A stretch of DNA of 64,000 bases from Escherichia coli. Lineage in GTDB: Bacteria; Pseudomonadota; Gammaproteobacteria; Enterobacterales; Enterobacteriaceae. The position numbers and the translations under genes were made by a program. The notes below the pieces were generated by a model, which made no database searches, had not been told where the DNA came from, and saw nothing but the letters and a program-made list of their open reading frames with translations. The stretch lies in assembly GCF_003334385.1 (NCBI RefSeq), contig NZ_QOWN01000015.1; one strand, given 5' to 3'. The first letter of the stretch is position 1. The number at the start of each line of letters is the position of its first letter. Of the stretch, positions 30,305 to 59,964 are shown piece after piece.

Positions 30305-31000
30305 TTAATCACGCTTTTCCAGCAGGGGCCGGTAAATCAGACCACCGATAATGCCGCCGACAATTGGCACCACCCAGAAGAACCACAGTTGTTCTAATGC
30401 CCAGCCGCCCTGGAAGATAGCAACCGCGGTGCTGCGCGCCGGGTTAACAGAAGTGTTAGTCACCGGAATACTAATTAAGTGAATCAGGGTTAAGGCCAGA
30501 CCAATAGCGATCGGCGCAAAACCTGCCGGCGCGAATTTGTCGGTTGCGCCGTGGATCACCAACAGGAAACCTGCACTCAATACCAGTTCAACTACCAGCG
30601 CGGAAAGCATGGAATAACCGCCTGGTGAATGCTCGCCATAACCGTTAGAAGCAAAACCGCTGGCTGCCGCGTCAAAACCCGTTTTACCACTGGCAATTAA
30701 ATACAGCAGCGCCGCTGCAACAATACCGCCGACAACCTGGGCAATTACGTAGCCAACGACTTCTTTTGCCGGAAAACGTCCGCCAGCCCATAAACCAATA
30801 GTGACCGCCGGGTTAAAATGACCACCAGAAATATGACCAACAGCAAAGGCCATCGTCAGAACGGTCAGACCGAACGCCAACGCCACGCCGGCAAAACCAA
30901 TGCCTAATTCCGGGAAGCCTGCGGCCAGTACAGCACTACCACAGCCACCAAAAACAAGCCAGAAAGTACCAAAACATTCAGCTGCTAATTTTCTGAACAT
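30305..31000 (-). CDS. aqpZ: Aquaporin Z, 231 aa
   Basis: Two NPA motifs ([18 protein letters not shown]); start trimmed to MFRKLAAE. Confidence 0.95.
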
Positions 31001-31425
31001 ATCCACCTCAATTAAAAATTGACCCTGTGAAAAATATGGTCGTTTTATAGGGTCGTCGTAAAAAAGTGACGACGGAAATAATGCGCGGCTATTTTAAAAA
31101 CGAAGGCGAGTCATTCACCAGATAAATAAATCCAGTAAATTTGATTTAGGGCAACAGCGGGTTGCCCCATATAGTCATTTGTCTGATTGACAGTGTAGTG
31201 CACGCAAAAGATTTAATCCTTTAGGCGTAATAAAAAATAATTTATCATGCTAATTATTTGATTTTGTTGTTTTTGCAGACTTATCAGCAAGAGGGAGTAT
31301 AACGCGATTATTCGCTCATTTTTCAGACATTTGCCATGCTTAAATGTGATGTCATCACGTATTAGCAAGGCCTTTCCCGTTATACTGCCAGCGTAAAGGA
31401 TAAGTCACATATTTCTGGAGGGGAT

Positions 31426-33084
31426 ATGATTCTTGAGCGCGTTGAAATTGTGGGTTTTCGCGGTATCAACCGTTTGTCGTTGATGCTGGAACAAAACAAC
31501 GTCCTGATTGGGGAGAACGCGTGGGGTAAATCCAGCTTGCTGGACGCCTTAACTCTGCTGCTATCGCCAGAATCAGATCTCTACCATTTTGAGCGCGACG
31601 ATTTCTGGTTCCCGCCGGGAGATATCAACGGGCGAGAACATCATCTGCATATTATTTTGACCTTCCGCGAATCGCTGCCAGGCCGACATCGGGTTCGCCG
31701 TTATCGGCCGCTGGAAGCGTGCTGGACGCCATGCACCGATGGCTATCACCGTATTTTTTATCGTCTGGAAGGGGAGAGTGCGGAAGACGGCAGCGTGATG
31801 ACACTGCGCAGTTTTCTCGATAAAGACGGACATCCGATTGATGTCGAGGATATTAACGATCAGGCACGCCATCTGGTGCGTTTAATGCCGGTGCTGCGCT
31901 TGCGTGATGCCCGTTTTATGCGCCGTATTCGTAACGGCACGGTGCCAAATGTCCCTAATGTGGAAGTCACCGCGCGCCAGCTCGATTTCCTCGCCCGTGA
32001 GTTATCCTCACATCCGCAAAATCTCTCTGATGGGCAGATTCGTCAGGGACTTTCCGCAATGGTACAGCTGCTTGAGCATTATTTCTCTGAGCAGGGGGCC
32101 GGACAGGCGCGATATCGTTTAATGCGGCGGCGAGCCAGCAATGAGCAACGAAGCTGGCGCTATCTGGATATCATCAACCGGATGATTGACCGACCTGGTG
32201 GGCGCTCGTATCGGGTTATTTTGCTCGGCCTATTTGCTACTTTGTTGCAGGCAAAAGGCACATTGCGACTGGATAAAGACGCCCGTCCATTGTTGCTGAT
32301 CGAAGATCCAGAAACCCGTTTACACCCCATTATGCTTTCAGTTGCCTGGCATCTGTTGAATCTTCTGCCATTGCAGCGCATTGCCACCACCAACTCGGGT
32401 GAGTTGCTTTCGTTAACGCCGGTAGAGCATGTTTGCCGACTGGTACGTGAGTCCTCGCGCGTTGCCGCCTGGCGTCTGGGGCCGAGTGGCTTGAGTACCG
32501 AAGATAGCCGACGCATATCCTTTCACATTCGTTTTAACCGTCCGTCATCGCTGTTTGCACGCTGCTGGTTGCTGGTGGAAGGGGAAACGGAAACCTGGGT
32601 TATCAATGAACTGGCGCGTCAGTGCGGACATCATTTTGATGCCGAAGGGATCAAGGTCATTGAGTTTGCCCAGTCCGGGCTAAAGCCACTGGTTAAATTT
32701 GCCCGCCGAATGGGGATTGAATGGCATGTACTGGTCGATGGCGATGAAGCAGGGAAGAAATATGCCGCTACGGTACGCAGCCTGTTGAATAACGATCGGG
32801 AAGCCGAACGAGAACATTTAACGGCGTTACCGGCGCTGGATATGGAACATTTTATGTATCGCCAGGGATTTTCCGATGTGTTCCACCGCATGGCGCAAAT
32901 CCCGGAAAATGTACCGATGAATCTACGCAAAATTATCTCGAAAGCGATCCATCGCTCTTCCAAACCCGATCTTGCCATTGAAGTGGCAATGGAGGCAGGA
33001 CGTCGTGGTGTGGACTCCGTACCGACGCTGCTGAAAAAAATGTTCTCACGCGTGCTGTGGCTGGCGCGCGGTCGCGCGGATTAA
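31426..33084 (+). CDS. ybjD: OLD-family ATP-dependent endonuclease homologue YbjD (ABC-ATPase N-terminus plus Toprim C-terminus), 552 aa
   Basis: N-terminal Walker A-like GENAWGKSSLLDAL; C-terminal region with the acidic LLVEGETE...DGDEAG pattern typical of Toprim; 4-bp convergent overlap with ybjX. Confidence 0.85.
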   Translation: MILERVEIVGFRGINRLSLMLEQNNVLIGENAWGKSSLLDALTLLLSPESDLYHFERDDFWFPPGDINGREHHLHIILTFRESLPGRHRVRRYRPLEACWTPCTDGYHRIFYRLEGESAEDGSVMTLRSFLDKDGHPIDVEDINDQARHLVRLMPVLRLRDARFMRRIRNGTVPNVPNVEVTARQLDFLARELSSHPQNLSDGQIRQGLSAMVQLLEHYFSEQGAGQARYRLMRRRASNEQRSWRYLDIINRMIDRPGGRSYRVILLGLFATLLQAKGTLRLDKDARPLLLIEDPETRLHPIMLSVAWHLLNLLPLQRIATTNSGELLSLTPVEHVCRLVRESSRVAAWRLGPSGLSTEDSRRISFHIRFNRPSSLFARCWLLVEGETETWVINELARQCGHHFDAEGIKVIEFAQSGLKPLVKFARRMGIEWHVLVDGDEAGKKYAATVRSLLNNDREAEREHLTALPALDMEHFMYRQGFSDVFHRMAQIPENVPMNLRKIISKAIHRSSKPDLAIEVAMEAGRRGVDSVPTLLKKMFSRVLWLARGRAD

Positions 33085-34073
33085 CCGCGAAACATCGTGG
33101 CCATTTGTGGCTGAATAGCGTCGAGCATCTCATAGCGCCGACGGTATTCAGCCCGTTTTTTACTGGCGATTTCGGCAATCTCTTTTCGTGCTATCTGTGC
33201 TGGAAGGCGGTAATGGCGTTCAGCATCACATACGCCGCCAACCGATTCCCAGAAAGCGTTGTAATCAGCGTGGATCTTGCCTTCTTTATCGCGATAACGC
33301 AGGCTGCGGTAAATATGCGTTTCATTGCTGACGGCAATAATCTGCTCTACCTGCAAACGTTGGGCAAACAGACAGGCCGCTTCCATCACGAGGCGTTTGG
33401 GAAATAGCCCGTGGCAGGCTTTCGTCGCATTCTGGATTTCCTGATGTGGAATTTCCCATTTTGCGCCTTGCAGTCCGCCAATAAACATCGTTCTTTTCCC
33501 CTGATATTCACACAGGGTAAACGTGATCTCTGCCAGAGGAATACCTTCGCTGTTGCGGAACAGGATTGTGCTGTCACCTTCTTTATCCATTGAGATCATC
33601 ATGGTCAGCTCAAGCGTGAACTGCTCGCCGTTTTTGCCTTCCAGCTTCGCCAGTTGCAGCCCGGGGGTATTCAAATATAAGCTGAATTCTTCCGCCGACA
33701 TACATTCGCGGAGTAACGCATAATGGTAACGTAACGCCTCCAGCAATTGCTTACGGCTAAGATTCGCCGCAAGGTAAGGGCGATGCAGACGCACAGGCAG
33801 TCGCGGCTGGCGCGTTAACAATACATTGAGATTAGGCCAGTGGGAAAGTTCGTTCATCCACTCAACGCTTAAACGCGGCATAATCAACGAGCGCAGCAAA
33901 AATTTCTGGCGAAAACTACGGCGATGCCAGAATTTACCCGGCCGACACTGTCCACGTGCCAGACTAAGAAAAAGTGACAGGCTGCTGAGAGATTCAGATG
34001 GCGTAAAGGTCCGTTCAGTTAGCTGCGACATATTCATGAAATCAATGGTTATACATGGCGTCGATTTCACCAT
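33081..34073 (-). CDS. ybjX: VirK/DUF535-family protein YbjX, up to 330 aa (start ambiguous between 34073 and the downstream MNMSQL Met)
   Basis: ORF translation; synteny upstream of macA. Confidence 0.8.
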   Translation of the reverse strand: MVKSTPCITIDFMNMSQLTERTFTPSESLSSLSLFLSLARGQCRPGKFWHRRSFRQKFLLRSLIMPRLSVEWMNELSHWPNLNVLLTRQPRLPVRLHRPYLAANLSRKQLLEALRYHYALLRECMSAEEFSLYLNTPGLQLAKLEGKNGEQFTLELTMMISMDKEGDSTILFRNSEGIPLAEITFTLCEYQGKRTMFIGGLQGAKWEIPHQEIQNATKACHGLFPKRLVMEAACLFAQRLQVEQIIAVSNETHIYRSLRYRDKEGKIHADYNAFWESVGGVCDAERHYRLPAQIARKEIAEIASKKRAEYRRRYEMLDAIQPQMATMFRG

Positions 34074-54359: not shown

Positions 54360-55673
<1,314 letters not shown>

Positions 55674-56183
55674 TACCCAATTTTTCTGAATCTAAAAAGC
55701 GCCTGCGGGCGGTTTTTGCATGAGATTAATTAACTGAAAATAAAAGGGATTTATTTTCAGGTGTCCATATAATGTCCATCTTTGAAACAAAAAAGCCCGC
55801 AGTTTTTACGCTACGGGCTTTGTTTTTCTTTGTGACTTGCGTGTGAGGGTGCTACTTTCGACCGAACCTTTGGCAACCGGATAGCGGGGGCTTTCACCCC
55901 CGCTGCGGTTTCTTACGGTTTACACTGCAAGAACGCCGCAAATTCTGACCACATGATGTTAAGTCTGAACTCACACGGCGAACGGTGTATCATCCAGACT
56001 GTCAACAACATGGTTAAGCATAAAATGCTCACGATGATCGTTTTTTGCGGCATAGCGCTTGCTCCTTTTTCAAAGAGGCGCTAACCTTCCACTTGCGAAG
56101 GTTAGATGGTTAGGGCCTCGGGTTAAACAAATGTTTGACTCGGGGCCTTTTCACATCCGGCCTTCAGGTAATCCTTCCAGCCG

Positions 56184-56486
56184 TCAGCCGAAAGGCACCC
56201 GCGCGTAATGTACAGTTTTTGACTGGGAGGTGCAATCGCCCAGGGGGAGGCTGAGTTGATCCCTTCCCCGGTGGCATGATTTGAAAGCGTCTGCGGGGAC
56301 GACTCCCCGTTCTTCGGTGGGTTGCGGACGGCATACGGTTCTCACGACAAACTCGTGCGTCACAAAGGTGGCGCTGCATTCAATGTTGTTGCACTGGTAA
56401 TATTTCTCCCTGATTGTTCCTGTATCGTTGGCGTCGCGGCTTGTTCTGGTGCGGGTACTTGCTCCGCAGTATGGGCAAGGATGCAT
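56184..56486 (-). CDS. ogr: Ogr/Delta-family zinc-finger late transcription activator, 100 aa
   Basis: N-terminus MHPCPYCGASTRTRTSRDANDTGTIREKYYQCNNIECSATFVTHE matches the P2 Ogr C-x2-C...C-x4-C zinc finger and flanking residues. Confidence 0.75.
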   Translation of the reverse strand: MHPCPYCGASTRTRTSRDANDTGTIREKYYQCNNIECSATFVTHEFVVRTVCRPQPTEERGVVPADAFKSCHRGRDQLSLPLGDCTSQSKTVHYARVPFG

Positions 56487-56527
56487 GATGGTCCCCCTGG
56501 CTGAAACGGGGTGGGCTCGCGCTCATT

Positions 56528-57673
56528 CTAGCCAGTCGTGGCGCGCTCTGCTATCCAGTCTGCGATTTTTGCTTCCAGCTCCAGTCTGGTGGTGAAGCCG
56601 CTGTCGTCGATGACGTGCTCAATGCGCGAAATAACCCAGTCCTGATTGTCAATGTCGCTCTTGAACCCGGATACCGTGCCGTGCATCTCCGGATACAGGT
56701 CGGCGCGTCCGCGCGCCAGCGTGATGCTGAATTCTGCTGCACCCCGCTGAAGTTGCTGCCAGCGTGCGGCAGCTGCGCGACGCGCGGCTTCTTCGTTCGG
56801 GTAGGTTTTTCTCAGCACATACACATTGCCTTCTGCGCCTTCCATGTATCCACCCTCCCGTGAACTGCTTTTCTCCGGCTTCTGTGTGGTTTTCGCGTTT
56901 CGCTTTTTCACGTTCACGGCCTTCTTCTGGCCGAACTTTAAATCCAGCCAGTAAGCTTTCACTCCGGTATAGGCTTTTCTGTCAGCAATGCGAAAGCGAT
57001 GACTGTCGCCATCCGAGCGGGTCAGGGCGAATGAGGGGAGGGCGCGCCCGCTGGCTGTCACACCGCCACCCGGCAGAATGAACAGCAGGCATCCGTTTTT
57101 TACGGTGGTTATTGCACCCAGCATGTCAGCCATGCGCGTGAGGAACGAGATGTCGCTTTCCTCTGTCTGGTCTGCATGGTCGATTTCGATATTCATCAGC
57201 ATTTCGCTGATTTGTGCTTTCAGTCCGTAACGGTGCGCGATGGCAGATACCACACGCTCAACGGTCACGTCATGCCAGGAGACTTCGCGTTTCACGTTAA
57301 ACTCTTCGCGAAAATCCGCACTGTTCGCGGATATGGTCAGCTTATCCGGCGGACCTTCGTGGCTCACTTCGTCCACCACAAACGTTCCCTTGCGAGTGAG
57401 GCTTTCACCTTTCCATCCCATCGCCAGCGATAATCGTGTTCCGCGTTCCGGAAGTACCACCCCGCCCTCGGCGTCGTCGATTTCCAGTGTCACCCTGTCA
57501 GCCTCAAAACCCCTGTTGTCTGTCATGGTCAGGCTCATGATGCGCTGCGTGATGTTCTTCAGGCTGGCATCTTTCCCTTCCAGTGTGATAGTGAAGTCTG
57601 GCACCCTAACGGTATCTTCCGCTGCATCCAGTGCGCTGTTGATGTGATGTGTTACTGATTCAGTGATGCTCAT
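56528..57673 (-). CDS. P2 gpD-like tail protein (late control D), 381 aa
   Basis: Resembles P2 gpD (…LSLAMGWKGESLTRKGTFVVDEVSHEGPPDKLTISANSA…, …SGFKSDIDNQDWVISRIEHVIDDSGFTTRLELE…). Confidence 0.8.
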   Translation of the reverse strand: MSITESVTHHINSALDAAEDTVRVPDFTITLEGKDASLKNITQRIMSLTMTDNRGFEADRVTLEIDDAEGGVVLPERGTRLSLAMGWKGESLTRKGTFVVDEVSHEGPPDKLTISANSADFREEFNVKREVSWHDVTVERVVSAIAHRYGLKAQISEMLMNIEIDHADQTEESDISFLTRMADMLGAITTVKNGCLLFILPGGGVTASGRALPSFALTRSDGDSHRFRIADRKAYTGVKAYWLDLKFGQKKAVNVKKRNAKTTQKPEKSSSREGGYMEGAEGNVYVLRKTYPNEEAARRAAAARWQQLQRGAAEFSITLARGRADLYPEMHGTVSGFKSDIDNQDWVISRIEHVIDDSGFTTRLELEAKIADWIAERATTG

Positions 57674-57733
57674 GATATCCCTCCCGTGTGCGTATCATCC
57701 CACGCGTACCTTGTCGTTTCTGTCCGGCTCTGT

Positions 57734-57751
57734 TGTAAAAAAATCCCCACA
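57734..57751. promoter_or_regulatory. TGT-N12-ACA dyad, the signature of Ogr-dependent P2 late promoters, in the D/FI divergent intergenic region
   Basis: tgtaaaaaaatccccaca; centre is about 85 bp upstream of the FI ATG (57827) and about 70 bp upstream of the D ATG (57673). Confidence 0.45.
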
Positions 57752-57826
57752 GCCCGCATCAGGTGAGGGCTGTGCGCCAATGGTGGATTATTCAGGCGAG
57801 CATAAACACAACTGATGGTGAATCGT

Positions 57827-59020
57827 ATGGCTGAAAAACGATTTCACGGTGTGCGCGTCACGGAGAATACCGACCTTGTGACGGCCATTAATGACGTTGA
57901 TTCCAGCGTCATTGGTATTGTTGCCGTTGCAGATGATGCGGATACCGGGCAGTTCCCCCTTAACAAGCCAGTGCTGATTACCCGTGTATCTTCTGTTCTG
58001 GGGAAGGCCGGGAAAGCGGGCACGCTTTATAAGGCCCTTAAAGCGATATCTGACCAGGTCAGTACACGGGTGATTGTCGTTCGCGTGGAGGCGGCAAAAG
58101 AGGGGGCTGAGAATAAAACACAGGATCAACTGGTCATTGGTACCACGGAAGAAGACGGAAGCTACAGCGGTATGCAGGCGCTTCTGGTTGCCGAACAGAT
58201 GGAAGGTATTGGTTGCCGACCCCGCATTCTTGCCGCTCCGGGCCTTGAATCGGATGCTGTCACGGCTGCACTGGTGACTGTTGCCGGAAAAATGCGCGCA
58301 TTTGCGTATTCCGGCTGCCCTGGCTGCACAAAACCGTCCGATGCTATTGCGTTCCGTAAAAAGATTTCCGGTCGCGAAATCATGCTTCTGTGGCCTGATT
58401 TCATTGCGTTCAACCCGGTGTCCGGTAAAAACGAAACCTTCCCGGCTGCGGCGTATGCGTGCGGTCTTCGTGCCCGACTCGACCATGAACAGGGCTGGCA
58501 TCGCTCCCTTTCTAACATGCCTGTGAAAAATGTTCTTGGGGTGTCAGCGTCTGTTTCCTGGTCACTTCAGGATGAAAACAGCGATGCCAACACGCTGAAC
58601 AACAGCGAGGTGACCACTCTTATTCACCAGGGCGACGGCTCCTTCCGTTTCTGGGGTAACCGTACGCCGGAAACTGCGGAGTACATCTTTGAGGTGTACA
58701 CACGTACGGCGCAGCAACTGGCTGACACCATTGCGGAGGCGCAACTTCAGATAGTGGATTCACCGCTTACGCCTGCCAATGCTAAGGATGCCGTGAGCGC
58801 TATCAAGGCAAAGCTGGATGCACTGGTGACAGCCGGAAAACTCATCGGGGCTGAGTGCTGGTTCGATATCATCGACAACGGCACAACCAGTCTTCGTCAG
58901 GGCATTGTGCGTATTCGCTACAAATACACGCCTGTTCCGCCGATGGAGTGTATGGAACTCTATCAGACGTTTACCGACGAGTTCTTCAGCTCTGCTTTTG
59001 CATCTCTTGGAGGTAGCTAA
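57827..59020 (+). CDS. Contractile tail sheath protein (P2 FI-like), 397 aa
   Basis: MAEKRFHGVRV..., FPLNKPVLITRV, DHEQGWHRSLSN, FRFWGNRT, YTRTAQ motifs match P2 FI; start trimmed to ATG 57827. Confidence 0.9.
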   Translation: MAEKRFHGVRVTENTDLVTAINDVDSSVIGIVAVADDADTGQFPLNKPVLITRVSSVLGKAGKAGTLYKALKAISDQVSTRVIVVRVEAAKEGAENKTQDQLVIGTTEEDGSYSGMQALLVAEQMEGIGCRPRILAAPGLESDAVTAALVTVAGKMRAFAYSGCPGCTKPSDAIAFRKKISGREIMLLWPDFIAFNPVSGKNETFPAAAYACGLRARLDHEQGWHRSLSNMPVKNVLGVSASVSWSLQDENSDANTLNNSEVTTLIHQGDGSFRFWGNRTPETAEYIFEVYTRTAQQLADTIAEAQLQIVDSPLTPANAKDAVSAIKAKLDALVTAGKLIGAECWFDIIDNGTTSLRQGIVRIRYKYTPVPPMECMELYQTFTDEFFSSAFASLGGS

Positions 59021-59532
59021 TGGCCGTACCAAAAAAACTTCGTGTGTTTACCGTCTTTGTGGACGGTGACAACAGGCTGGGAAAGGTGACGTCTTTTACC
59101 CCGCCAAAACTGACCCGTAAAACAGAGTCGTATCGCGGGGCGGGGATGCCAGGCTCTGCGTCGGTGGATCTCGGTCTTGATGATGGTGCACTGGATCTCT
59201 CCTTTGCGGTTGGTGGCGTCGATCGTCACATCTTTGCCAAATACGCCGCCGGTATTGATGCCGTGCGTGTTCGCTTCTCGGGTGAATACTATTCCGAAGA
59301 AGGGATTGAGTACGTCGATATTGAAGCCCGTGGTCGCATTGTCGAAATCGACAAGGGCGAGGCCAAACAGGGTGAAGATACCGAACATACCTATGCGATG
59401 AAATGCACCTGGTACAAGCTCAGCGTTGATAACAGCGATGTTATTGAAATCGACGTGCTGAACTTCATCTGGCGCATTGATGGTAAGGATGTTCTTCCTG
59501 ACCGCACCCGCTCCATGCTGGGGCTTGGCTGA
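59020..59532 (+). CDS. Tail tube protein (P2 FII-like), 170 aa
   Basis: MAVPKKLRVFTVFVDG...PPKLTRKTESYRGAGMPGSASVDLGLDDGALD matches P2 FII; ATG overlaps the FI stop (TAATG) with GGAGG Shine-Dalgarno. Confidence 0.9.
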   Translation: MAVPKKLRVFTVFVDGDNRLGKVTSFTPPKLTRKTESYRGAGMPGSASVDLGLDDGALDLSFAVGGVDRHIFAKYAAGIDAVRVRFSGEYYSEEGIEYVDIEARGRIVEIDKGEAKQGEDTEHTYAMKCTWYKLSVDNSDVIEIDVLNFIWRIDGKDVLPDRTRSMLGLG

Positions 59533-59583
59533 TAGTTAAATCTGATAACAGGGGCGGCGTCCTGTTGCCCCGGGAGAAAAATA

Positions 59584-59964
59584 ATGGATCAGACTGAAGA
59601 AAATATCGTGACGAATGACACAGATGCTGTGACGAATGGAGACACGGAAAACGCAGAGGCGATCGCAAATGACACGGTTAATCTCAGGGTTCCTGTTGTC
59701 TGCGGTAATAAGACGGTTTCCAGCGTGAAGATTGGGGCGCTTGCGCGTCAGGTGGGCTCGCTTCGAGGGATCCGCATGACGGACCTGTTCAACACCGATG
59801 TTGATGCTGCCGCCATTTTTCTGGAACGCGTAACTGAACCTCACCTCAGCCGCGCGGCACTTATGTCAATGTGCCCGGAAGACTTCTTTAAACTGTACGA
59901 GGTGGCAGTCGGTTTTTTGCTTCCCTCGTCAGCGAAGAAGGCGCAGGAGGCGGGCGGCGCGTAA
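59584..59964 (+). CDS. Tail assembly chaperone gpE-like (0-frame product), 126 aa
   Basis: Position between the tube and tape-measure genes; carries a TTTTTTG slippery heptamer near its 3' end. Confidence 0.75.
   Translation: MDQTEENIVTNDTDAVTNGDTENAEAIANDTVNLRVPVVCGNKTVSSVKIGALARQVGSLRGIRMTDLFNTDVDAAAIFLERVTEPHLSRAALMSMCPEDFFKLYEVAVGFLLPSSAKKAQEAGGA

Follow-up and report, generated by a model that had tools for sequence, protein, structure and literature searches.

YbjD (OldB), a solitary OLD-family protein with an intact Toprim site, is the product of a vertically inherited Enterobacterales core gene

The window analysed here, a 64,000-nucleotide stretch of an Escherichia coli contig (NZ_QOWN01000015.1, assembly GCF_003334385.1), carries ybjD, an ATG-initiated open reading frame (ORF) on the plus strand that encodes 552 amino acids (aa) and is 100% identical to the ybjD annotated as "ATP-dependent endonuclease" in E. 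coli RefSeq genomes. Upstream, aqpZ (aquaporin Z; 30305..31006, minus strand) diverges from it; downstream, ybjX converges on it, and macA and macB follow beyond ybjX. A sequence-only reading of this stretch had described ybjD as a solitary nuclease gene of the OLD (overcoming lysogenisation defect) family in the core chromosome, with a role that was not established. The last part of that description is partly outdated. E. coli YbjD (b0876) served as the seed of the OLD census by Schiltz et al. (2019, PMC6755086), where E. coli figures as a solitary Class 1 example, and the gene has been characterised and named oldB by Atahualpa et al. (MicroPubl Biol, May 2026, PMC13261556), whose cloning primers match the ends of the ORF in the window. 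The finding in the window is a correct re-identification of a gene already described; the order-wide synteny, the selection analysis and the E-D degeneracy of Walker B reported below are not in the published ybjD work. Our conclusion is that YbjD is a catalytically intact, stand-alone OLD protein and most likely an ATP-gated two-metal nuclease. We hold this statement, taken whole, to be reasonably probable; we are close to certain of the molecular identity and the evolutionary pattern, and regard the ATP-gated DNA-nuclease mechanism as an even call.

At the protein level, the Pfam family DUF2813 covers residues 1-375 (E = 3.5e-160) and OLD-like_TOPRIM (PF20469) residues 376-440 (E = 7.8e-16), and the P-loop families AAA_15, AAA_23 and SMC_N match the N-terminus. 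Chance does not come close to explaining an ORF of 552 aa with a Pfam E-value of 1e-160. The arrangement first proposed from the sequence, an ATP-binding cassette (ABC) ATPase at the N-terminus and a Toprim domain at the C-terminus, is borne out by these matches, by the motifs, and by the profile and fold comparisons presented below. Coordinates of the domains, motifs and flanking elements are collected in Table 1.

Table 1. Features of the ybjD locus in window coordinates. AF2, AlphaFold2 model; pLDDT, predicted local distance difference test; dN/dS, ratio of non-synonymous (dN) to synonymous (dS) substitution rates.
Feature	Position	Strand	Basis or remark
ybjD/oldB coding sequence	31426..33084	+	552 aa plus stop; ORF list, Pfam, RefSeq match
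TATACT, candidate -10 hexamer	31381..31386	+	about 40 nt 5' of the start codon; conservation
Shine-Dalgarno GGAGGGG	31417..31423	+	sequence read; G31417, G31418 and G31420 invariant in the 17-region alignment
ABC-ATPase N-terminal lobe, aa 1-160	31426..31905	+	AAA_15/AAA_23/SMC_N; AF2 beta-sheet lobe, pLDDT >90
Walker A GENAWGKS, aa 29-36	31510-31533	+	read from translation
Helical insertion, aa 161-285	31906..32280	+	AF2 helices 177-195, 202-224, 237-255, 259-277; lower pLDDT
ABC-ATPase C-terminal lobe, aa 286-375	32281..32550	+	Walker B and H-loop H300
Walker B LLLIEDPE, aa 289-296	32290-32313	+	read from translation
Toprim nuclease domain, aa 376-470	32551..32835	+	Pfam OLD-like_TOPRIM; lowest dN/dS
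Toprim E385-G-E-T-E389	32578-32592	+	read from translation
Toprim D438-G-D440	32737-32745	+	read from translation
C-terminal helical domain, aa 471-552	32836..33081	+	AF2 helices, pLDDT >95; E474, K513-P514
E474	32845-32847	+	invariant in 64/64 family and 79/79 Enterobacterales sequences
K513	32962-32964	+	invariant in 64/64 family and 79/79 Enterobacterales sequences
ybjX (VirK/YbjX family by RefSeq name)	33081..34073	-	330-aa ORF, convergent with ybjD; context, not functional partner

Residue conservation was followed in 79 Enterobacterales sequences and in an alignment of 64 diverse full-length YbjD relatives, the latter also serving as the family profile. Across the wider set, E385, G386, E387, E389, D440, E474, K513 and P514 are invariant, and D438 is present in 63 of the 64 sequences. 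Within Enterobacterales, the Toprim residues, E474 and K513-P514 are all invariant, as are G29, E30, G34, K35 and S36 of Walker A. With none of the catalytic Toprim residues missing on alignment, the nuclease assignment made from the sequence alone held. Lys513 probably corresponds to the catalytic lysine that has been described as conserved in Class 2 OLD nucleases (PMC6755086).

The Walker B motif of YbjD reads E-D at the positions where P2 Old has D-E (IDEPE) and both Thermus scotoductus (Ts) OLD and GajA have E-E (IEEPE). Residue 294 stands where ABC ATPases have their catalytic Glu; it is Asp in all Enterobacterales sequences and variable across the wider family (D36/E18/N6/A2/T1 in the 64-member alignment), and E293, E296 and H300 are conserved at about 90-98% family-wide. 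Degenerate ABC ATPase sites provide an analogy for slow hydrolysis when Glu is replaced by Asp. ATP hydrolysis by YbjD is probably slow because its catalytic-Glu position is occupied by Asp, and the same analogy suggests that nucleotide binding matters more to this protein than fast hydrolysis. The helical insertion in the ATPase is the least conserved part of the protein, with the highest dN in comparisons with E. albertii, C. werkmanii and K. oxytoca, though not with E. cloacae; by analogy with the Ts OLD and GajA structures, it is predicted to be a dimerisation module. A candidate beta-clamp-binding motif, QLDFL (aa 185-189), was set aside, as it lies within a predicted helix and is not conserved family-wide.

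Profile and structure comparisons agree on the family. The 64-member profile matches Ts OLD (6P74) at 2.2e-21 and Bacillus cereus GajA at 2.2e-19, and the HMMER alignments place E385/E389 of YbjD at E377/D381 of Ts OLD and E379/E383 of GajA, and D438/D440 at D431/D433 of Ts OLD. An AlphaFold2 model of YbjD built from the same alignment (pLDDT 88.4; predicted template-modelling score, pTM, 0.87) matched, in a full-length Foldseek comparison with the PDB, GajA (1.3e-19; template-modelling score about 0.55-0.6), Ts OLD (5.8e-17) and Retron-Eco8 OLD (2.3e-14). Together, these data place YbjD in the OLD family in every sequence and structure respect tested, namely the ATPase, the Toprim acidic residues and the fold.

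Its context, with divergent aqpZ on one side and convergent ybjX on the other, is that of a solitary Class 1 OLD. No co-oriented partner gene (helicase, retron reverse transcriptase or AriB) lies beside ybjD in the window or in 80 Enterobacterales species, and none of its neighbours was matched as a system partner by defence-system profiles, in agreement with the lack of an adjacent partner noted at the outset; MacB gave ATPase-region and permease-region matches to the mad3, mad8 and CARF-LolE models and nothing more. In eight distant relatives, ATPase and Toprim are likewise fused in one polypeptide and not split as in AriA/AriB. The genes around them are of ordinary metabolic or housekeeping kinds, with no helicase, reverse transcriptase or AriB among the annotated flanking genes, some of the flanking genes being unannotated.

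Comparison with the characterised OLD systems sharpened this assignment. Like P2 Old, Ts OLD and Vibrio cholerae (Vc) OLD, the Class 1 proteins, YbjD is the product of a solitary gene, measures 500-600 aa, joins ABC ATPase, Toprim and helical C-terminus in one polypeptide and shares the acidic Toprim residues. Unlike the other Class 1 proteins, its ATPase half belongs to a separate Pfam family, DUF2813, and its identity to P2 Old is 28% over 198 aa. P2 Old is carried on a prophage, whereas YbjD is core and vertically inherited; Vc OLD needs both Toprim and Walker A, whereas the published YbjD phenotype needs neither.

GajA, of Class 2, provides both the best PADLOC profile match to YbjD (PDLC00094, 6.8e-80) and the best Foldseek match, and the GajA models of PADLOC score much higher on YbjD than the Old model does. 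Membership of Gabija, in which the helicase gene gajB is adjacent and usually overlapping and co-oriented, nevertheless does not follow from the locus: the downstream gene is the convergent ybjX, ybjD does not lie in a defence island, and no GajB-like UvrD helicase was found in the window, in the hcr..macB block of the sampled Enterobacterales or in the annotated flanks of the eight distant relatives. The idea of an orphan Gabija was rejected on the same absence of a nearby GajB and on a family profile that is about equally distant from Ts OLD and GajA. Neither is YbjD a retron-associated (Class 3, Eco8) protein, for which a reverse transcriptase and an msr/msd ncRNA would be expected alongside, its neighbours being aqpZ, lysO, ybjX and macAB and the NCBIfam Eco8 effector model giving a P-loop match only, at 20.6 bits against a cutoff of 250. 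PARIS (Class 4) does not apply either, as both domains are on one 552-aa ORF and the AriA profile covers residues 1-51 only. A further point of comparison is Cran1, a Sulfolobales OLD ATPase/nickase that is vertically inherited and acts in the cell cycle, not in defence (Yang et al., bioRxiv 10.1101/2025.03.27.645713). The distribution of Cran1, like that of the YbjD clade, tracks the phylogeny of the hosts, and at native level neither has an evident part in defence. However, Cran1 is essential and cell-cycle regulated, whereas ybjD is dispensable and has no known link to the cell cycle; and one protein is archaeal and the other bacterial, likened here by pattern.

We next consider distribution and descent. 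Of 5426 complete E. coli genomes, 5425 carry ybjD at 95-100% identity, with a median of one copy and two in a few. Across 80 species-representative genomes, the block hcr-hcp-lysO-(aqpZ)-ybjD-(ybjX)-macAB is kept from Escherichia to Serratia and Hafnia; Yersinia retains the full hcr...macAB block, and Pectobacterium and Brenneria retain lysO-ybjD, most of them with hcr-hcp as well. The core chromosomal setting recognised earlier in the one window is in this way matched by synteny throughout the order, and solitary chromosomal relatives occur in Vibrionales and Aeromonadales. Intact full-length ORFs were found in 78 of the 80 species, the other two sequences being one cut by a contig end and one partial match in a draft assembly. 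When YbjD sequences are compared in pairs, their distances correlate with the distances between the Hcp, PoxB and MacB proteins encoded at these loci (Pearson r 0.89-0.93), a test of vertical descent by distance correlation rather than by full tree reconciliation. Taken with the synteny, this is vertical inheritance of the kind described for Cran1.

Selection on the gene is strong. Against E. albertii, dN/dS is 0.015 for ybjD, compared with 0.026 for aqpZ and 0.024 for macB, and the Toprim segment is the most constrained part of the gene (dN/dS 0.005). A tblastn search of 50,697 phage records returned no full-length YbjD relative, and the sole match there was a 2-kb piece of E. coli sequence. 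The full-length matches listed for the plasmid collection are chromids or mislabelled chromosomes (Vibrio, Salinivibrio, Photobacterium, Aeromonas, Proteus and Yersinia), alongside a few small E. coli records that carry the chromosomal ybjD-ybjX segment at >99% identity; the partial matches listed on plasmids, megaplasmids and chromids are distant OLD proteins at 25-36% identity. A typical mobile defence gene is patchy in distribution, located on mobile elements or islands and fast evolving, and ybjD departs from this description on every distribution count. It is a vertically inherited Enterobacterales core gene and not a mobile defence cassette. One natural knockout was observed in a widely used physiology strain: in E. 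coli K-12 NCM3722 (NZ_CP011495.1 2168852-2171287), IS1A splits ybjD into two annotated DUF2813 fragments, one on either side of the transposase gene.

The published experiments on ybjD come from a single study (PMC13261556), which reports that the gene is expressed. Of the defence phenotype that the sequence-only reading had proposed to seek in deletion and overexpression strains, print holds one half: the Keio ybjD deletion is viable and its susceptibility to the tested phages is unchanged, whereas arabinose-induced YbjD gives fewer Bas18 and Bas20 plaques and smaller Bas64-68 plaques. This induced effect survives deletion of the Toprim domain and is lost without the ATPase domain; the K35A variant still produces it and shows greater toxicity. 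YbjD lacks the RecBC-linked killing of P2 Old, as a recBC(ts) strain is not killed by it. Beyond this study, the literature searched for ybjD/b0876 phenotypes gave only mentions in omics lists, use of the locus as an insertion site, and a label in the SGI1 literature. SGI1 papers apply the name "ybjD" to S024, an OLD-type endonuclease whose partner is the UvrD-like helicase S023; S024/S023 is a Gabija-like pair and not an orthologue of the chromosomal ybjD, and the shared name could confuse annotation.

From these observations, we propose the following scheme. A conserved promoter would provide low, constitutive expression of YbjD. The ATP-bound ABC head, probably dimerised through its helical insertion and hydrolysing ATP slowly, would keep the protein restrained; once that restraint is lifted, the Toprim site, with the invariant lysine supplied by the C-terminal helical domain, would nick or cleave nucleic acid, most probably DNA. 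We take ATP binding to act as a restraint and not as a motor because of the K35A result (PMC13261556), the precedent of GajA, which ATP binding inhibits (according to work cited in PMC13261556), and the degenerate Walker B; for GajA the parallel is by analogy. The overexpression phenotype is unlikely to represent the native function, because the Toprim domain and Lys35 are dispensable for it and yet have been preserved in evolution, the Toprim domain being the most constrained part of all. On this pattern of conservation, the native function probably uses the nuclease. We infer, in sum, ATP gating, a DNA substrate and use of the nuclease in the native role.

Several points weigh against this scheme. 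The argument from the E-to-D change to slow hydrolysis is an analogy with other degenerate ABC ATPases. No YbjD biochemistry was found in the literature searched. The sole published phenotype needs neither the Toprim domain nor Lys35, and the deletion has no phage phenotype (PMC13261556). This one functional read-out therefore lends no support to a mechanism based on the nuclease; the overexpression phenotype may come from the ATPase domain, which when overproduced could act by binding or titration.

What the protein does for the cell is best weighed between two accounts to which we give about equal weight, each of them tentative. According to one, YbjD is an anti-phage Class 1 OLD of the abortive-infection type that has become fixed in the core genome, senses a cue absent from the phages tested, and kills or arrests the cell via its ATPase domain and/or its nuclease. 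That nearly all characterised OLD proteins (P2 Old, Vc OLD, GajA, Eco8 and PARIS) are defence proteins argues for this account, as do the strong PADLOC match to GajA and the reduced Bas18/Bas20 plaquing and shrunken Bas64-68 plaques upon induction of YbjD. Yet the deletion leaves the tested phages unaffected, the overexpression effect is weak and independent of Toprim, and ybjD has no defence neighbours. Defence genes are patchy, mobile and quick to evolve; ybjD, which is core, syntenic and slowly evolving and was seen neither on phages nor on bona fide plasmids, shows the reverse pattern. That same pattern of vertical inheritance and synteny is the signature that led to Cran1, and the other account makes YbjD a bacterial counterpart of that protein, a housekeeping enzyme of DNA transactions that nicks the host chromosome under ATP regulation in repair, replication-associated processing or topology, with the weak anti-phage effect as an overexpression artefact. 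In a version of this account that we consider possible but no firmer, the DUF2813 clade is a domesticated, vertically inherited gammaproteobacterial OLD whose Toprim acts on host DNA, and the anti-phage effect is an artefact of the ATPase domain; nicking of aberrant replication or recombination intermediates under ATP control is one conceivable role, named with the same reserve. Consistent with a housekeeping enzyme, the nuclease site is the most constrained part of the gene although it is irrelevant to the defence read-out, relatives lie in housekeeping neighbourhoods, and in one metagenomic lineage the gene stands just upstream of a family-B DNA polymerase gene. Against it, ybjD is non-essential, as seen in the viable Keio deletion (PMC13261556) and in the IS1 insertion carried by NCM3722; the literature searched held no DNA-damage, growth or other cellular phenotype; no repair-gene neighbour is conserved across lineages, the polymerase adjacency being a single case; and the upstream region, when read by eye, showed nothing resembling a LexA box.

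Two further explanations carry less weight. An RNA- or tRNA-directed nuclease similar to P2 Old or AriB of PARIS, which would shut down translation and not cut DNA, seems improbable to us. It has precedents, in that P2 Old is reported to cleave host tRNA once activated (as cited in PMC13261556), the Toprim domain of AriB cleaves tRNA (PMC12409363), and RNase M5, another Toprim enzyme, has an active site that mirrors the one in Class 2 OLD (PMC6755086); but YbjD lacks the RecBC-linked killing of P2 Old, the solved proteins nearest to it in sequence profile and fold, Ts OLD and GajA, cut DNA, and the toxicity of overproduced YbjD is not known to depend on the Toprim domain. A functionless, decaying relic of an ancient defence system, for instance a GajA that has lost its GajB, would fit the best PADLOC matches being GajA profiles with no GajB present. 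Selection data exclude this explanation: dN/dS is 0.015, 78 of 80 species ORFs are intact, every catalytic residue is invariant, and all but one of the 5426 E. coli genomes have the gene.

These alternatives matter because OLD proteins are now taken almost by default as phage-defence effectors, and ybjD behaves like a housekeeping gene. The strongest constraint falls on a nuclease site that the sole published phenotype does not need. Resolving this mismatch would reveal what one of the few E. coli core genes still without a known function does, and the outcome would show either how an immune gene enters the core genome or that a bacterial OLD has a role in chromosome maintenance.

The 419-bp spacer between aqpZ and ybjD (31007-31425) is AT-rich (GC fraction 0.38) and almost unalignable between genera. 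In 17 aligned Enterobacteriaceae upstream regions, the TATACT hexamer and the Shine-Dalgarno sequence are the only conserved elements and the remainder does not align; TATA (31381-31384) is invariant and the following CT nearly so. On this conservation, TATACT may serve as a simple constitutive promoter of ybjD, although a simple sigma-70 scan did not call it and found no good -35 there. SOS control was considered and set aside, as no LexA-box-like sequence (CTGT-N8-ACAG) was seen upstream of ybjD on reading by eye, with no formal scan. Published work has placed lambda int-xis cassettes in this spacer, using it as a neutral site on the chromosome (PMC9203016).

At its other end, ybjD overlaps ybjX by 4 bp (33081-33084) across both stop codons, exactly the convergent overlap that had been read from the sequence, which leaves no space for a terminator. 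An RNA-seq study counts the two genes among convergent "excludons" (PMC12288877). In the 80 species genomes, ybjX is missing beside ybjD in Klebsiella, Raoultella, Trabulsiella, Superficieibacter and others. Where present in Enterobacteriaceae, its product is about 50% identical, compared with 80-90% for YbjD and 80-95% for the neighbours, and its dN/dS against E. albertii is 0.073 versus 0.015 for ybjD; ybjX evolves much faster than all its neighbours. It was tried as a partner of ybjD and rejected on the grounds of its absence from several genera, its low identity (about 50%) in those that have it, and its higher dN/dS.

Among more distant homologues, a search of 1.84 billion cluster representatives gave 335 YbjD-like clusters at E <=1e-30. 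The relatives of YbjD also comprise giant DUF2813/OLD variants of 1046-1867 aa (P0150, P0162-P0165, P0170, P0175 and P0196) with large insertions in the ATPase half, long C-terminal extensions without Pfam domains, and a YbjD-like core that is 40-45% identical; the one variant traced to an organism, P0162, comes from Anaerobiospirillum. Reading function from fusions was tried with these giants and proved uninformative, as they hold only DUF2813 and Toprim and their insertions are unannotated. The gene next to the family-B DNA polymerase belongs to the metagenomic homologue P0184 (gene 832-2532): it directly follows a PhD/PIN toxin-antitoxin pair and lies 47 bp upstream of the co-oriented polymerase gene. 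This is the sole repair or replication adjacency seen, in a single lineage, and may be a coincidence.

The P2-like element that had been placed about 23 kb from ybjD is indeed there: P2-type tail genes (D, sheath, tube, tape measure, U and fibre) occupy 56528-64000, starting 23.4 kb downstream of the ybjD stop. They belong to a P2-family prophage of about 37 kb between serS and dmsA, as seen in the near-identical strain G1/2. The tie between ybjD and this element that had been hinted at did not survive, since the prophage junction occurs in 16 of 5426 E. coli genomes, compared with 5425 of 5426 for ybjD, and no old gene is annotated in the prophage of strain G1/2. ybjD is unrelated to the prophage and predates it by the age of the order. 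In the window, serS ends at 55673, the prophage region covers 55700-64000, and hok/gef and ogr-like genes lie at the serS-proximal end of the prophage. Its tail block (sheath, tube, tape measure and U) has the opposite orientation to gene D and to the fibre and baseplate genes, an arrangement that differs from the order in P2.

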